Below the pieces are notes generated by a model. That model had not been told where the DNA came from. It searched no databases and saw only the letters and a program-made list of their open reading frames with translations. Shown piece after piece: positions 19,070-47,380 of a DNA stretch of 64,000 bases. A program made the position numbers and the translations under genes. The DNA comes from Thermoplasmatales archaeon (GTDB taxonomy: Archaea > Thermoplasmatota > Thermoplasmata > Thermoplasmatales > Thermoplasmataceae): positions 180,860-244,859 of the forward strand of contig DAIDBH010000006.1 in NCBI GenBank assembly GCA_027310185.1, in the 5' to 3' direction. How positions within the stretch are numbered: position 1 is the first letter of the stretch; every line of letters begins with the position of its first letter.

Positions 19070-19642
19070 ATGAAGCATAGGAACCCATTGAGCGAAAAGG
19101 AAAAAATGATCTCCGGGGAATTATACCGTTCGAGCGATGCCCAGCTTATTGAAGAAAGAATGAGGGCAAGAACCATACTGAATGAATTCAACATAATTCC
19201 AGTAGGTAATGCTTCCAGAAGAATTCAAATCCTTGAAGCCTTTTTTGGAAAGGTAGGAAAAAATCCCTATATTGAACCTATTTTTTACTGTGACTATGGC
19301 TACAATATTGAGATTGGAGATGAGTTTTATGCAAATTATAACTGTGTTATACTGGATGTCTGCAGGGTGACCATAGGAAGAAATGCTCTTCTCGGACCTT
19401 CTGTCCATATATATACGGCATCTCACCCACTGGAAAGTCAAAAAAGAATAAGTGGACTGGAGCTGGGAAAACCAGTGACCATAGGTGATGACGTATGGAT
19501 TGGAGGTGGTGCCATAATAAATCCGGGAATCAGTATTGGAAACAGATCCGTAATTGCTTCTGGTTCTGTGGTTACGAGAAATGTCCCTCCAGATGTATTA
19601 GTGGGAGGAAATCCAGCAAGACTTATAAAAAAAGTTTCCTGA
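19070..19642 (+). CDS. maa: Maltose/sugar O-acetyltransferase (hexapeptide repeat)
   Basis: EKEKMISGELY, FYCDYGYNI, IGDDVWIGGGAIINPG, GGNPAR. Confidence 0.9.
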   Translation: MKHRNPLSEKEKMISGELYRSSDAQLIEERMRARTILNEFNIIPVGNASRRIQILEAFFGKVGKNPYIEPIFYCDYGYNIEIGDEFYANYNCVILDVCRVTIGRNALLGPSVHIYTASHPLESQKRISGLELGKPVTIGDDVWIGGGAIINPGISIGNRSVIASGSVVTRNVPPDVLVGGNPARLIKKVS

Positions 19643-19770
19643 CATCCTCTCCATGCTAAAGTATCGGAGGTTCCTGATTCATAGAGTGGCAACTCGTAGA
19701 CCTCCTTTTGAGAGTTCCGCTGCTGTAGCACTTTCCACAGGCGTGAATTTGGACATGTCCTGTCCTATTT
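19639..19770 (-). ncRNA. Predicted omegaRNA/reRNA scaffold of TnpB (overlaps tnpB 3' end and right end)
   Basis: GGACA..TGTCC hairpin, TTCA/TGAA and CCTG/CAGG pairings, terminal hairpin; position as known for TnpB reRNAs; 5' boundary approximate. Confidence 0.7.
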
Positions 19771-20848
19771 TTATTAATCCCATATTCCTTATGTTTATTG
19801 CAGCATTCAGATCCCTGTCCATAGAAAGACCACACACATTGCAGTGATATATGCGATCCGACAGTTTCAAATCATGCTTGATGTTTCCGCATTTTGAGCA
19901 CATCTTTGATGAAGGATCGAATCTTCCAATCTCAATGAGGACCGCTTCCCCCCATTCGAGTTTATACGTTAGCATGGTCTTGAACAGATACAATCCCTGA
20001 TCTGCTATGCTTCTTGCAAGATGTTGGTTTCTTTGCATTCCCTGTATGTTTAAATCCTCAATTACAACAGTACCGTAATGCTTGGCTATCGCTGTTGATA
20101 CCTTGTGGTTGAAATCCGTTCTTGCATCCCTGATTTTCTGATTTATCTTCTGCACTTTCACTATCTGCTTCTTCCTGTTTTTCGATCCTTTTCTTTTCCT
20201 TGATAACCTCCGCTGTTCTCTTTTTAACTTCTTTTCACTTTTCCTCAATGCATTAAGCGGTTCAACCTGCAATTTATCCGATGTGGTTAGGAATGCCTTG
20301 ATTCCCATGTCTATGCCGATGATGGCATCTCCTTTAGATAACTTCTCATCAGTTTCATGCTGGATAAATGCATAGTAGCGTTCAACATCTTTAGTTACAA
20401 TAACCTGCTTTATATCGGCTGGAAATGTAGATTCGTCTCTGTACTCTATGCCTTCCATGAATTTTTTGATAATCAGCTTGTTTCCGTCTGTTTTGAATCC
20501 TGATGGTATTATGAAATACTGGTTATCCTTTTTTGATCTGAATTTCGGATAACTGGCATTATGCTTGAAAAACGACTTGAATGCCATGTCCAGCTTTACA
20601 AGGGAGTGTTGAAGGCTCTGAGAATTGATTTCGTTCAACCATGTTAACCCCTTCTTCAATGTCGTTAACATCTTCATGGTATCGAAACCTGATAATCCCC
20701 TCTTTTTGTCGTTCTTATGCTCAGCAAAGTACTTGTTTCTCACTTCGAGAAAATGATTCCATACAAAGCGGCATGACCCAAAGTGCTTTTCCAGAAGAAC
20801 CGTCTGTTCTACATTTGGGTATAAACGCACCTTGAGGATTTTAATCAT
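19679..20848 (-). CDS. tnpB: RNA-guided endonuclease TnpB
   Basis: N-terminal HTH (RLYPN..Q...FGSCRFVWN); RuvC triad IGIDMG / VIEDL / DRDLNAA; CxxC...CxxC zinc finger; FTPVE tail. Confidence 0.96.
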   Translation of the reverse strand: MIKILKVRLYPNVEQTVLLEKHFGSCRFVWNHFLEVRNKYFAEHKNDKKRGLSGFDTMKMLTTLKKGLTWLNEINSQSLQHSLVKLDMAFKSFFKHNASYPKFRSKKDNQYFIIPSGFKTDGNKLIIKKFMEGIEYRDESTFPADIKQVIVTKDVERYYAFIQHETDEKLSKGDAIIGIDMGIKAFLTTSDKLQVEPLNALRKSEKKLKREQRRLSRKRKGSKNRKKQIVKVQKINQKIRDARTDFNHKVSTAIAKHYGTVVIEDLNIQGMQRNQHLARSIADQGLYLFKTMLTYKLEWGEAVLIEIGRFDPSSKMCSKCGNIKHDLKLSDRIYHCNVCGLSMDRDLNAAINIRNMGLIKIGQDMSKFTPVESATAAELSKGGLRVATL

Positions 20849-20965
20849 TACTTACACAGTCACACAAATACCAATAAACTTTCACAATTCATCTCCTCCC
20901 TGAAGGTCGGAGCTTTCTTGCTCAGATTATTGTAAAATTTATAATAGGGTTGATTATATGCACCG

Positions 20966-44340: not shown

Positions 44341-45306
44341 TTATTTCGACAGGAACTGATCTACTTTATCTGCATTCCCTTTTACTGAAGCGACTGTCTT
44401 GTTCCAAAGCTCCTTCTCTTCTGGTGTGAAGTTAATATCAAAGATTCTCTCCACTCCATTTTTGCCTATAAGAATTGGAAGTCCTATGAACAGCCCCTGA
44501 GCTGAATAGTGTTTTGCTGTTTTTTCATCGACAAATGATGCACAGGGTATCATTCTTCTCCTATCTTTTACTATTGATTCTACCATTGCGGTTATTGCTA
44601 TACCTGGTGCATAGTAAGCGCTTCCTGTCTTGAGGTAATCTACTATTTCACCTCCTCCAAATCTCGTCCTCTTTACAATTTCATCTATTTTTTCTTTGCT
44701 TAGAAGATCTGTTATTGGAATACCGCCTACAGAAGAATACCTGATAAATGGGACCATATCATCTCCGTGACCGCCGATGACAAATGCGTTTACATCCTGA
44801 ACTGATGCGTTGAGTTCCATTGCGAGGAATGTCCTGAACCTTGAACTGTCTAGTGAGCCACCTAGACCTATTATCCTCTTTGGATCTATTCCGCTGACCT
44901 TCTGAAAAGCGTAAGCCATGGTATCAGCCGGGTTTGACACTATTACAATTACAGATTCCGGGGAATATTTCTTGACATTTTTTGCAACATCAGCTATTAT
45001 TGCTATGTTTTTTGCAAGCAGATCATCTCTGCTCATTCCTGGCTTTCTTGCAAGTCCGGCAGTTATAACAATAACATCAGAGCCCTTCATATTCTCATAA
45101 TTCTTCGGATCAACAGTAGTAAATCCCTTAATATTCAGATCTGTACCCCAGTGAGGTGTGCCCTCCATCATATCGAGTGCTTTTCCTTCTGGAATTCCAT
45201 CAACCACATCAAATAAATAGACATCACCAAGGTCCTTCAGCGCAATAAATTGTGCAACTGTAGCTCCAACATTTCCCGCTCCTATTACGGATATTTTAGA
45301 TCTCAT
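44341..45306 (-). CDS. mdh: Malate dehydrogenase (LDH-like)
   Basis: GAGNVG, TAGLARKPGMSRDDL, LDSSRF, GGHGD. Confidence 0.95.
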   Translation of the reverse strand: MRSKISVIGAGNVGATVAQFIALKDLGDVYLFDVVDGIPEGKALDMMEGTPHWGTDLNIKGFTTVDPKNYENMKGSDVIVITAGLARKPGMSRDDLLAKNIAIIADVAKNVKKYSPESVIVIVSNPADTMAYAFQKVSGIDPKRIIGLGGSLDSSRFRTFLAMELNASVQDVNAFVIGGHGDDMVPFIRYSSVGGIPITDLLSKEKIDEIVKRTRFGGGEIVDYLKTGSAYYAPGIAITAMVESIVKDRRRMIPCASFVDEKTAKHYSAQGLFIGLPILIGKNGVERIFDINFTPEEKELWNKTVASVKGNADKVDQFLSK

Positions 45307-45433
45307 GCTGTCAGTATTACTTTAAGGGTTAAATGGTTATTTATCTTTTTATAATACTAGCTAATCTTATATTAGACTTTTTTAATCTTTGAACCTCATG
45401 AAAGAATTTATCAAATCTAATAAATGTTTCACC

Positions 45434-45530
45434 GTGACCTCCTTTCCCACCCTCGCAGTGAGCTTCCCGTTTCAGAGGTTGCTAGAAAAATCTCCACGGG
45501 CTTGAATTCCCCTCAGTCCGAAGGTACTGT
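45434..45530 (-). ncRNA. Orphan omegaRNA-like scaffold
   Basis: AATTCAAGCCCGTGGA...TCTGAAACGGGAAGC parallels AATTCACGCCTGTGGA...TATGAATCAGGAACC of the intact element, with compensatory changes. Confidence 0.6.
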
Positions 45531-45669
45531 GTCCTTCATACTAAGCCATCTAACTTTACGGCTGCACGCACGCATGAAACAATATGCTATCCGACATTTT
45601 TCACTTCTTTCTGCAGGCACACATCAAAATATCCCATCCTGCAAAAATAGGAGTTCCCGCTCGTGCATT
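45434..45669 (-). mobile_element. Non-autonomous IS200/IS605 derivative (PATE-like; tnpB deleted)
   Basis: Minus strand: TTTAA|AATGCACGAGCGGGAA left end with degenerate hairpin; remnant 'VPSD*GEFKPVE' of a TnpB tail; right end GAAGC..hairpin..GGAGGTCAC; GC-richer than flanks. Confidence 0.72.
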
Positions 45670-45931
45670 TTAAAACAATTTTTAGAAGGGTGCGTAAAAC
45701 ACCTTTTGATAATAGTAATATAGTTGATTCTAATACATCTACCAATAATATAGTAATACCAACCTATTCCAGTACTAATTGGCATGGATATGTCTGATAT
45801 CATGTTGATTTCAAAATATAGGTATTTAGGTTGTACTGTAAAATTTAAAACCAAAATGTTTAAATCCAATTTAAATTACACATAACAGTATTGCGAACCA
45901 AGTTCAATGCAAGATAAGAGGTTAAAACTTA

Positions 45932-47380
45932 ATGGAAGATCCATTTGAAGTGTTTCGGGATTTCTTTAACCAGAAATTTGGAAAGTCACTTATAATCAAG
46001 GGCAGACCCGGTACGGGTAAGACAACATTCAGTCTTGAATTAGCATCCCGCTTATATGAAAGCCAACCAATACATTTTCTTTCCTCAAGATTCAACGACG
46101 AACCACTGAAGGATGCTTTTCCCTTTATAGAACAGATTTCTTATAGAATTAATAAAGAAAATTTTTCGTATACTGAAGATTTTAAATATGTAAGTACTGA
46201 ATCGCTTAAAAAACTTGAAAAACTCCTCGAAGAGAAAAACCTTAATTCTGATTTCACAGGCTCCAGTGGATTAATATTTGATATAAAGGAGGTTATACCT
46301 GAGCTCAATGCCATTTACACATTTGTAGAGAAAAATTTTGAACTGGGTCCTGTTGTAATTCTGGACTCAATTGAGGCTATTGCGCAGAAATACAGTATTG
46401 ATGAAACTACATTATTCAGCATATTACAGAATGATCTGGTTGAAAAGAGTGGAGCTGGACTCATTGTTGTTTTGGAGTCGACACAGAACGATAAACTGGA
46501 ATATTTTTCTGATGGAGTTATCAGCCTTAGCATGGAAATAGACAGGAATTACATGATCAGGTATATGAGAATTGAAAAATTAAGAGGTTTATCCCTTGGT
46601 TCTACCCCTTTCTTTTCATACTCCCTCCTGAATGGAAGATTTACATTATTTCCAATAATTTCAGTGTCTTACCCTACCCAGAAGGTACCGGTATTTTCTG
46701 ACATTGGGGAGAACAAAGACGCTGTAGACATGGGAGTTTCAGCAATTTCGAAGGTGCTTCCAATGAACAAGAGAACAGTAGACATTGGTTCTCTTGTACT
46801 GATTCATCGAATGGAAATATCTGACAGGACAGACATTGCCGTAAATCTGATTAAGAATTCTCTCGTTAGGCGAACTATATCTGAGGGAAGAGGAGTGATA
46901 GATGTATCCTCAAGCAGTTATGAATCAGCAAAAATATTGAATCTGACTATGGAACCGGAACAGCTGAAGCATTATATAACTGCAGAAAAAACAAAAAGAA
47001 CAAATCCCTCCGTCATAAATCTCGAAGGAGCAAAAATGACAGAGGATTTTACAAGTGAGGCAATAGAGTATTTTACGGGTTCATCCAAAAGACCTAACGT
47101 TTATATTTTTTCCACAGACTTCCTAAATTTTACCTACGGTGAAAATTTCATAGGTGATTTCCTTACTATATTGAATGAAATACGTCTTACAGGTACAATA
47201 TTCATGATATGCGATGAAGATTTTTACAAGAAATTGAGTCATCATGCAACATTCTCCCTGCACCTTCGGGATAAAGATGGATTTATCTTCCTTAATTCTG
47301 GTGGAAATAAGCACTTTTCTGTGCAGTCTCTGGTTGATCAGAGCGGATGGCCTTCCTATGATCTCATAGAGTCTGTCTGA
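45932..47380 (+). CDS. KaiC/GvpD-like RecA-superfamily ATPase (intact N-terminal domain, degenerate second domain)
   Basis: IKGRPGTGKTT Walker A, VILDS Walker B, DGVISL...IEKLRG. Confidence 0.8.
   Translation: MEDPFEVFRDFFNQKFGKSLIIKGRPGTGKTTFSLELASRLYESQPIHFLSSRFNDEPLKDAFPFIEQISYRINKENFSYTEDFKYVSTESLKKLEKLLEEKNLNSDFTGSSGLIFDIKEVIPELNAIYTFVEKNFELGPVVILDSIEAIAQKYSIDETTLFSILQNDLVEKSGAGLIVVLESTQNDKLEYFSDGVISLSMEIDRNYMIRYMRIEKLRGLSLGSTPFFSYSLLNGRFTLFPIISVSYPTQKVPVFSDIGENKDAVDMGVSAISKVLPMNKRTVDIGSLVLIHRMEISDRTDIAVNLIKNSLVRRTISEGRGVIDVSSSSYESAKILNLTMEPEQLKHYITAEKTKRTNPSVINLEGAKMTEDFTSEAIEYFTGSSKRPNVYIFSTDFLNFTYGENFIGDFLTILNEIRLTGTIFMICDEDFYKKLSHHATFSLHLRDKDGFIFLNSGGNKHFSVQSLVDQSGWPSYDLIESV

Follow-up and report, generated by a model that had tools for sequence, protein, structure and literature searches.

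We examined a 64-kb stretch of the genome of a Thermoplasmatales archaeon (contig DAIDBH010000006.1, positions 180,860 to 244,859; hereafter the window, in whose numbering positions are given), in which an unannotated segment lies between mdh (44341-45306, minus strand) and a gene for a GvpD/KaiC-like ATPase (45932-47380, plus strand; Pfam). A preliminary description of this DNA had taken the segment to be a GC-richer island holding a TnpB-less mini-element. Consistently with this, the GC content is 0.44 to 0.51 in the island and 0.25 to 0.32 in the flanks, the ends match those of full-length IS200/IS605 insertion sequences (IS), and of tnpB only a seven-codon tail remnant is left. The segment at 45434-45669, which is read on the minus strand and spans the first base past TTTAA to the last base of TCAC, is thus confirmed as a TnpB-less IS200/IS605 derivative of the palindrome-associated transposable element (PATE) kind. 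The features of the locus are listed below, where two-sided changes are changes in both partners of a base pair among the copies of the family.

45670 to 45674, minus strand: TTTAA, the transposon-adjacent motif (TAM), directly next to the left end; direct reading.
45654 to 45669, minus strand: 16-nt left-end tip AATGCACGAGCGGGAA, identical at 12 of 16 positions to the consensus CATTTGCGAGCGGGAA of the same length.
45621 to 45653, minus strand: AT-rich variable spacer, the most variable part of the family (entropy 1.35).
45643 to 45649, minus strand: TATA-like run TATTTTT within the spacer, ~25 to 30 nt upstream of the conserved core.
45525 to 45620, minus strand: conserved 5' domain, the most conserved part of the family (entropy 0.39 to 0.51).
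45614 to 45618, minus strand: 5' strand of helix P1, inside the 5' domain, with two-sided changes in the family.
45481 to 45485, minus strand: 3' strand of helix P1 (CTAGC), enclosed by stem 2 at the place where full-length elements have a local stem-3 hairpin.
45572 to 45579 with 45534 to 45541, minus strand: hairpin P-mid, inside the 5' domain, with two-sided changes in the family.
45510 to 45524, minus strand: stem 1 hairpin (CCTTC, loop GGACT, GAGGG), with all five pairs changed on both sides between mini-elements and TnpB-linked elements.
45515 to 45518 with 45436 to 45439, minus strand: proposed pseudoknot formed by stem 1 loop bases.
45492 to 45512, minus strand: degraded tnpB tail remnant, in-frame G-E-F-K-P-V-E, aligning with the C3-type and L071-type TnpB tails described below.
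45466 to 45500, minus strand: stem 2 (CCCGT/ACGGG; 45496-45500 with 45466-45470), a covarying helix.
45446 to 45462, minus strand: right-end subterminal hairpin (CTCAC, loop TGCGAGG, GTGGG), with two-sided changes in six of seven pairs in the family.
45434 to 45442, minus strand: right-end terminus GGAGGTCAC, with the element end at 45434, exactly where homology among copies stops.
45418 to 45433, minus strand: flank immediately 3' of the right end, the putative 16-nt guide GGTGAAACATTTATTA.
45377 to 45573, strand not assigned: separate 199-nt metatranscriptome contig from RNA run X1.

The TTTAA motif, the tail remnant, and the right end had all been claimed for the minus strand, and direct reading finds each of them; GGTGAAACATTTATTAG stands directly after the terminus GGAGGTCAC. 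The claimed left end is there in part: its 16-nt tip is present, but ~34 positions of the family model, with the left-end hairpin, are missing. The right-end hairpin would be both the presumed recognition hairpin of TnpA and the terminal stem of an omegaRNA.

A search for genome-wide copies and for a full-length parent with the same ends yielded three more copies in this 1.88-Mb genome (contigs C13, C1, and C12; 77 to 84% identity, unrelated flanks) and an autonomous element on contig C3. By a family profile, the good copies in the genome number four, the window copy included. The genome is archaeal, since it encodes TBP, a family that gave a signal in archaeal control genomes only. Eight weaker profile hits in the same genome (G000; scores 19 to 62) are probably older decayed copies or the ends of other elements (C18:249598-249863, C17:174386-174559, C18:141932-142059, C1:130956-131152, C17:140822-140937, C12:188149-188225, C4:21939-21997, and C4:182161-182379). 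A DNA search placed the element in 39 of 101 genomes of the archaeal family, this one included, and in 15 of 20 genera; among genomes at least 90% complete, 17 of 49 have it. Several relatives carry at least seven copies each, and copies differ by 14 to 30%. In a class-level sample of 301 genomes, 12 of 33 further genomes of the family and two of three of the sister family have the element, and one genome of a third family has left-end-like pieces only.

The profile, run on 73 loci, gave 74 matches (locus L028 having two), 51 of which run through the whole 278-position model (start at or before position 3, end at 278). TTTAA precedes 37 of the 43 copies whose match starts at model position 1, TCAC closes 53 of the 58 copies that reach position 278, and the length of the element without TTTAA is 269 to 276 nt (median, 273). 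The conserved scaffold ends at the TCAC border, and the sequence past it, at the guide position, differs in every copy. Flanks are unrelated between copies, with insertion 3' of a fixed TTTAA and a fixed terminus at the right end. No TnpA or TnpB gene was detected within or beside the element in the 29 relatives' loci searched by tblastn with the C3 TnpB, the window TnpB, and the C3 TnpA; the sole hit was a 46-amino-acid (aa) fragment 1.3 kb off in L028. The family therefore shows the marks of PATEs, namely end homology with hairpins, no protein gene, a fixed motif and terminus, and multiple sites with presence/absence differences. Both end hairpins covary in the family, of which the window copy has the right-end hairpin and the left-end tip only. 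The window element is one copy of a family-wide mobile PATE and not an isolated relic.

Two shorter forms were also seen. These micro-derivatives of ~97 nt (L041:1620-1760 in genome G098 and L042:2650-2760 in G015) have the left-end tip fused to the tnpB tail and right end at a shared GGGAATTC; the central domain is lost, and they are still bordered by TTTAA and GTCAC/GTAAC. The stems of the left- and right-end hairpins co-vary between subgroups of copies, for example CCCAC...GTGGG (left) with CCCACG...CGTGGG (right), which suggests that several TnpA specificities exist.

The genome contains three tnpB genes (on C3, on C2, and in the window), a fragment on C7, and a sub-threshold match on C13, together with two intact tnpA genes (C2 and C3) and a broken one (C7). 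The intact-looking autonomous IS200/IS605 element at C3:51120-52869 comprises TTTAA, a left end, tnpA (141 aa), tnpB (420 aa), and a right end with TCAC. The mini-element can be aligned both to its left end GAGCGGGGATTCCCCTTTCGCAAGAGAGGGAATGAAAGCGAGCGAAAC and to the combined tnpB tail and right end, and the end hairpins of the mini-element family resemble those of the C3 element; the right end of the latter closes in GGATGTCAC, and the C3 and C7 elements have the same terminus as the mini-element. The C3 TnpA is a full Y1_Tnp match. The C3 TnpB has three Pfam domains, its residues 13 to 391 align with ISDra2 TnpB (8h1j, E = 2e-55), and an alignment to 9yyg, an AI-designed RNA-guided nuclease, shows the DxG, E, and DRD motifs. 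Thus, a second TnpB subfamily encoded elsewhere, which the preliminary description had anticipated, exists on C3 as a tnpA and a 420-aa tnpB between the same left- and right-end sequences, and this C3 element is probably where the mini-elements of the genome would obtain TnpA and TnpB. At C7:21860-22513 there is a decayed sister copy, whose tnpA is split in two and contains stops and whose tnpB is reduced to an 85-aa fragment.

The tnpB element in the window itself (19639-20960, minus strand) is a solo element with no tnpA beside it. Its 389-aa TnpB (19679-20848; Pfam OrfB_IS605 plus two other domains) is encoded 25 kb from the mini-element. With TTAC before the left end and a right end closing in GGATGTCAG (GTCAG) at 19639, it does differ, as had been claimed, from the mini-element in both motif and end (TTAC/TCAG versus TTTAA/TCAC).

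The relationship to full-length elements extends to relatives. At 30 loci of C3-type TnpB, the mini-element profile matches the left end (model positions 1 to ~70) and the tail with the right end (202-278), in 22 of the 30 through the last position, and in one TnpB subgroup (L071, L069, and L072) the match extends to position 175-179. The C3 TnpB tail ...GTPEFTPVEI... aligns with the window remnant GEFKPVE, and the L071-type tail ...RVPTDCGEFMPVEE... resembles the in-frame ...DRVPSGRGEFKPME... of the mini-element. A full-length parent with the central domain was not found by profile among the 30 loci, where the furthest reach was 164-179 (L058, L069, L071, and L072), and for model positions ~85-175 (window ~45525-45620) no counterpart could be detected in the full-length elements examined. 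Partial DNA hits considered as possible parents were rejected, being shorter or more diverged mini-elements without tnpB. The earlier view that the scaffold mirrors the 3' end of the intact tnpB 25 kb away holds accordingly for one part of it, that tnpB element having CCTG...CAGG and TTCA...TGAA at matching places, but ~45525-45620 mirrors no tnpB 3' end found. Many C3-type tnpB genes of relatives contain one to three in-frame stops of mixed kinds (TAA, TAG, and TGA) and look like pseudogenes rather than genes with a recoded stop.

C3-type TnpB (best E <= 1e-100) occurs in 17 of 38 other genomes with the mini-element versus 12 of 62 without it, counts that come from related genomes and so do not amount to a statistical test.

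The interior of the element is better kept than the parts that TnpA is known to need, since the mean column entropy is 0.39 to 0.51 in the core, 0.72 in the right-end hairpin, and 0.89 to 0.96 in the left end, with 1.35 in the spacer. All column pairs of an alignment of 55 mini-element cores (alignment A1) were scanned for covariation. One of the three top helices joins columns 133-137 with 164-168 (CCCAU/GUGGG or CCUGU/GCAGG; CCCGU/ACGGG in the window copy). Another joins 52-59 with 91-98 (U-A or C-G), and a third, 12-16 with 149-153 (GCUGG/CCAGC or AUCAG/CUGGU), crosses the first; RNAalifold independently recovered both of the latter. With a six-helix structure, 92.7% of 1759 cells are paired, versus 43 to 54% when the partners are slid by one to three columns. 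Two-sided cells number 119, versus 18 to 37 after sliding and 40 ± 4.5 after shuffling, and none of 500 shuffles reaches 119. The number of pairs with any two-sided change (14) is no higher than in shuffles, 180 of 500 of which reach 14.

A second alignment (A2) combined 22 tnpB-linked 3' ends with 36 mini-elements. In stem 1, the hairpin before GAATTC, all five pairs are changed on both sides and 95.5% of cells are paired, the variants being CCUUC/GAGGG in mini-elements, GGGAG/CUCCC in the C3 type, and CCCAC/GUGGG or GGUAC/GUGCC in the L071 group. The pseudoknot, in which the stem 1 loop pairs with positions -6 to -3 before the element end, is 95.7% paired, and one of its positions is C-G in 29, A-U in 20, and U-A in 2 sequences. 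Stem 2 (CCCNU/NNGGG) is 94.8% paired, and two-sided cells overall number 182, versus 36 to 113 after sliding. The right-end hairpin is 88% paired in A1 and 65% paired in A2, where its register is wrong for the mini-elements. When 19 tnpB-linked 3' ends were scanned for covariation, no helices other than stem 2 and the right-end hairpin were resolved. The claim that paired regions were retained through compensatory changes is therefore borne out by two-sided changes in both alignments. At fixed positions, U-G pairs persist (at one of them, for example, in 48 of 52 sequences), which leans toward a structure formed by RNA.

The two classes differ at stem 3. Nineteen alignment columns with the stem-3 hairpin of the tnpB-linked form (e.g., GCCAGCAATGGC within GGAGCTCT...AACTCC) are absent from all mini-elements aligned, and the GCCAGC left over from this region in mini-elements pairs with a GCUGGC ~135 nt upstream, forming P1.

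For the ISDra2 omegaRNA, the available text of PMC10097598 gives stem 1 at -116 to -86, a pseudoknot of -105 to -103 with -5 to -3, stem 2 joining -84 to -81 with -35 to -32, stem 3 inside stem 2, and a tetraloop at -20 to -17. Like this RNA, as far as it is laid out there, the mini-element scaffold is located at the right end and continues into the flank, which would be the guide, has ~100 nt upstream a hairpin with a loop that pairs to bases directly preceding the guide, joins positions ~-38 to -34 to an upstream strand in stem 2, and has a terminal hairpin with a tetraloop near -22 to -19. We infer from these positions that the helices sit at closely similar places in the two RNAs. Unlike the ISDra2 omegaRNA, the mini-element scaffold neither overlaps nor adjoins tnpB, of which only the seven-codon tail remnant is left, and it replaces stem 3 by a long-range helix to a 5' extension, giving a second crossing topology. 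The two also differ in TAM (TTTAA here, TTGAT for ISDra2). The gene of the mini-element RNA goes back to, and would work like, an omegaRNA gene, although it does not have the canonical tnpB-linked form.

The window copy resembles this family beyond chance: the profile matches it with E = 1e-61, aligned from model position 46 only, and its left-end hairpin is deleted at the 45654/45653 junction, the deletion being bounded by the repeats GAGCGGGAA and GAGCGAAA (the junction was read by eye from the comparison of copies). As is known from IS608, TnpA requires both subterminal hairpins. The window copy is therefore probably immobile, and excision, the only natural source of the guide's target, is unlikely. 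In its core, the window copy shares 83.6% identity with the consensus of the family and ranks 43rd of 55. Over five tested helices, 25 of 27 pairs are intact (P1, 3 of 5; P-mid, 8 of 8; stem 1, 5 of 5; pseudoknot, 4 of 4), the four helices other than P1 being complete. The right-end hairpin is shifted in register, with five pairs still possible when read by eye. At the mdh site, the congeners G050 and G031 have 205 nt, versus 353 nt here, and no element, and the flanking genes are 86 to 89% identical. Since both lack the element at the orthologous site, the insertion is younger than the split from these congeners or was lost in them; a clean empty site was not recovered there, the intergenic region of G050 and G031 being too diverged.

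The 16-nt guide GGTGAAACATTTATTA is unique in the genome, and its own locus is preceded by GTCAC, not TTTAA. Three sites with two mismatches lack TTTAA, and the single TTTAA-flanked site has four mismatches. A target made up of TTTAA plus the guide, for which the preliminary description had proposed to search, was found neither in the genome at up to two mismatches nor, as an exact match, in viral contigs. An exact search for the TTTTAA-plus-flank junction gave no hits in viral contigs and six in metagenomes, which share nothing else with the locus and were rejected as chance. The window copy thus has a largely intact RNA core but a guide without a target, and it is most likely an old, damaged, and inert guide-RNA gene in slow decay. 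With the left-end hairpin missing and no guide target, a present-day role for it is unlikely.

Two metatranscriptome runs (X1 and X2) of one sample contain 81 to 82% of the sampled words of a 3-kb stretch of the locus; three further runs of another study contain next to none of them. RNA contigs were compared over 44900-46300. In X1, the mdh contig (depth, 250) ends at 45260 and the ATPase contig (depth, 365) starts at 45920, while a separate 199-nt contig covers 45377-45573 with no mismatches; 45261-45376 and 45574-45919 are uncovered. The separate contig takes in the scaffold's 3' 140 nt and the guide plus 57 nt of flanking sequence that is unique, and because of this flank it can be assigned to the window copy. 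This contig is compatible with the suggestion that an RNA with the guide may be expressed; X2 has nothing on the element. The window copy seems to be weakly transcribed. An A+T-rich block stands 25 to 32 nt before the conserved core in 55 copies, a spacing as for an archaeal TATA box, and the AT-rich run in the spacer is a possible internal archaeal promoter. On the opposite side, X2 has a GvpD/KaiC-like ATPase contig that starts ~170 nt before the start codon at 45932 (window 45759-45931), which may reflect a long leader or a missed upstream start codon.

We propose that the mini-elements are an ~273-nt non-autonomous family of the PATE kind with an omegaRNA-type guide-RNA core, derived from a tnpA-tnpB IS of the TTTAA/TCAC type, and that the window copy is an old and damaged member of it; we put the probability of this reading at about 0.6. 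TnpA supplied in trans would move intact copies by the peel-and-paste route. The interior would be transcribed from the internal promoter into an omegaRNA-type guide RNA, whose 3' ~100 nt would form an ISDra2-type scaffold running on into the flank as guide. Loaded with this RNA, a C3-type TnpB from another locus would cut the empty TTTAA-plus-flank site left by excision, and recombination after the cut would restore the mini-element, which would thus make use of both enzymes of its parent. In such a scheme, the conserved 5' domain would take the place of the deleted stem 3 through the long-range pairing P1, and its part may be the one that falls to the tnpB mRNA context in the parent. The use of the family RNA by TnpB in trans is plausible. 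It is tempting to go further and to regard the mini-element as a specialized hyperparasite of the parent IS, with a free-standing guide-RNA gene of its own, an internal promoter, and a ~95-nt 5' domain that rebuilds a TnpB-competent scaffold via P1 without tnpB coding sequence, but we consider this extension tentative and the odds to be against it.

Several observations weigh against the proposal. The compatibility of the mini-element RNA with the C3 TnpB is an assumption, because the scaffolds differ (stem 3 versus P1 and the 5' domain). Of the 38 other genomes with mini-elements, 21 have no C3-type TnpB (best E > 1e-100), and eight, including the near-complete G050 and G010, have no TnpB hit at E <= 1e-20. 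The helices were picked on the same alignment on which they were later counted, the two-sided changes come from few lineages and so represent few independent events, and pair counts do not tell an RNA structure from one formed by top-strand single-stranded DNA (ssDNA). By minimum free energy, neither the window core nor a consensus-like copy folds better than dinucleotide shuffles (z = 0.06 and -0.31). A covariance-model search of RNA families, named in the preliminary description as a check on the locus, gave no Rfam match to the element or to tnpB-linked ends at E up to 1: four copies and the C3 element at that threshold returned one tRNA only, and the 64-kb window at gathering thresholds two tRNAs only. 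As for the window copy, it lacks the left-end hairpin and keeps three of five P1 pairs, its excess of intact pairs is not significant (30 substitutions placed at random leave at least 25 pairs in 6.9% of trials; p = 0.07), and the missing TTTAA-flanked match speaks against a working role of this copy in particular. The X1 contig, at a depth of 4.1, has neither strand nor ends assigned and may stem from DNA carry-over, and X2, from the same sample, does not cover the element. Finally, if the eight weak hits are decayed copies, the copies are not protected by host-level selection.

Some of these points would be expected if the family were a transposition shell only, that is, a miniature inverted-repeat transposable element or PATE moved by TnpA with no role for an interior RNA, of which the window copy would be a plain IS scar. 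The conserved center would then be due to recent spread from a few master copies or to ssDNA folding that aids TnpA. The many genomes with mini-elements and without C3-type TnpB fit this explanation, as do the failure to find a thermodynamic signal or an Rfam hit, the four good and eight weaker hits as possible stages of decay, and the micro-derivatives of L041 and L042, in which the left-end tip, tail, and right end are all that remains. The absence of the element from two congeners, which indicates that the host does not need it at the mdh site, also counts in its favor. However, the center is more conserved than the hairpins recognized by TnpA in spite of a divergence of 14 to 30% between copies. 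The helices with two-sided changes are placed like stem 1, the pseudoknot, and stem 2 of ISDra2, as given in the available description of that RNA; pairing with the bases just before the guide has no known need in transposition; U-G pairs are kept at fixed positions; and an RNA-library contig lies on the locus. We therefore regard a pure shell as unlikely.

Less probable still is a stand-alone regulatory small RNA (sRNA) that acts without TnpB, for example by titrating TnpA or by base-pairing with mRNAs, on the model of VNG_R0052, whose overexpression improved the growth of Halobacterium according to the accessible part of PMC4615843. The same source, as far as available, documents expressed PATE-derived RNAs in archaea. 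Such an sRNA would accord with a conserved 5' domain that tnpB-linked elements lack and with the persistence of mini-elements in genomes without a cognate TnpB. The 3' flank differs in each copy, however, so that a fixed targeting part would have to be in the conserved core; the 3' half keeps a TnpB-type scaffold with the pseudoknot next to the guide; and the weak hits in the genome, which may be decayed copies, speak against selection at the host level.

An effect in cis on mdh is very unlikely. Being on the mdh strand and 127 nt upstream of the start of that gene, the element might donate a promoter or a leader, and the RNA contig runs 57 nt past the right end toward mdh. However, the contigs are separate, with an uncovered gap at 45261-45376 and depths of 250 versus 4, and the ~45 nt before the mdh start are conserved in the element-less G050 and G031, from which it follows that mdh has a promoter region of its own. 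The antisense frame (45424-45723, plus strand, 99 aa) was rejected as a gene for a small protein, a reading with next to nothing in its favor: the longest stop-free stretch (median, 90 codons) is antisense in 43 of 57 copies, but two of the three antisense frames are equally open (median, 64 codons each), as expected from the composition of the pyrimidine-rich antisense strand and not from coding, a period of three bases is not seen in the variation (permutation p = 0.89), indels of a single base occur scattered over the copies, and there is no Pfam match.

PATEs of IS200/IS605 elements are reportedly known from Haloquadratum. PATE-like gene-less elements of Geobacillus stearothermophilus are described in the accessible text of the preprint by Meers et al. 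(PMC10055086), according to which PATEs often encode omegaRNAs that would need TnpB in trans; a PATE is also pictured in the available part of the IStron paper. Like these, the family described here is a gene-less fusion of left and right ends, is present in multiple copies, and is presumed to be moved by TnpA in trans. Unlike them, it belongs to another lineage (the archaeal family and its sister family), and its 273 nt contain a structured ~95-nt 5' domain foreign to the parents, the parent's stem-3 hairpin being deleted; the window copy, moreover, has no left-end hairpin. PATEs carrying omegaRNAs are thus already in print, and what this family adds is a conserved 5' domain replacing stem 3. 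The particular family was not found described in literature searches, none of which was aimed at this lineage, and we make no claim that it is unpublished.

In Halobacterium salinarum, an expressed PATE-derived RNA, VNG_R0052, was reported by Gomes-Filho et al. (PMC4615843, available in part). Like this RNA and the sotRNAs treated there, the mini-element is an archaeal intergenic fusion of the left and right ends of an IS200/IS605-type element. VNG_R0052 is expressed, while the expression of the mini-element rests on one low-depth contig. Unlike the Halobacterium RNAs, the mini-element has no Rfam hit at E up to 1, although Rfam includes HgcC according to the part of that paper at hand. For SisTnpB1 of Sulfolobus islandicus, another archaeal IS200/IS605 system, the accessible portion of 10.1101/2023.03.06.531077 gives a 5'-TTTAA TAM that is also the left-end cleavage motif and that is shared with the mini-element family. 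Unlike the mini-element RNA, the SisTnpB1 omegaRNA, as presented there, is tnpB-linked and has biochemical proof.

For the window locus itself, an immobilized and decaying copy whose guide has no target, the consequence is small. For genome annotation, the gain is a profile that recognizes an ~273-nt repeat otherwise seen as unannotated GC-richer islands. If TnpB does use the family RNA in trans, the mini-elements would be a natural archaeal case of guide and nuclease encoded at separate loci and would provide a compact natural scaffold variant for ISDra2-like TnpB. Such a scaffold, freed from coding constraints and partly rebuilt, would bear on the modularity of TnpB on the way toward CRISPR-Cas12. 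If, in addition, the mini-element is a hyperparasite with its own guide-RNA gene, it would illustrate how a transposon end can give rise to a stand-alone, tracr-like locus for a guide RNA, a step presumed to lie on the path from TnpB to Cas12 systems.

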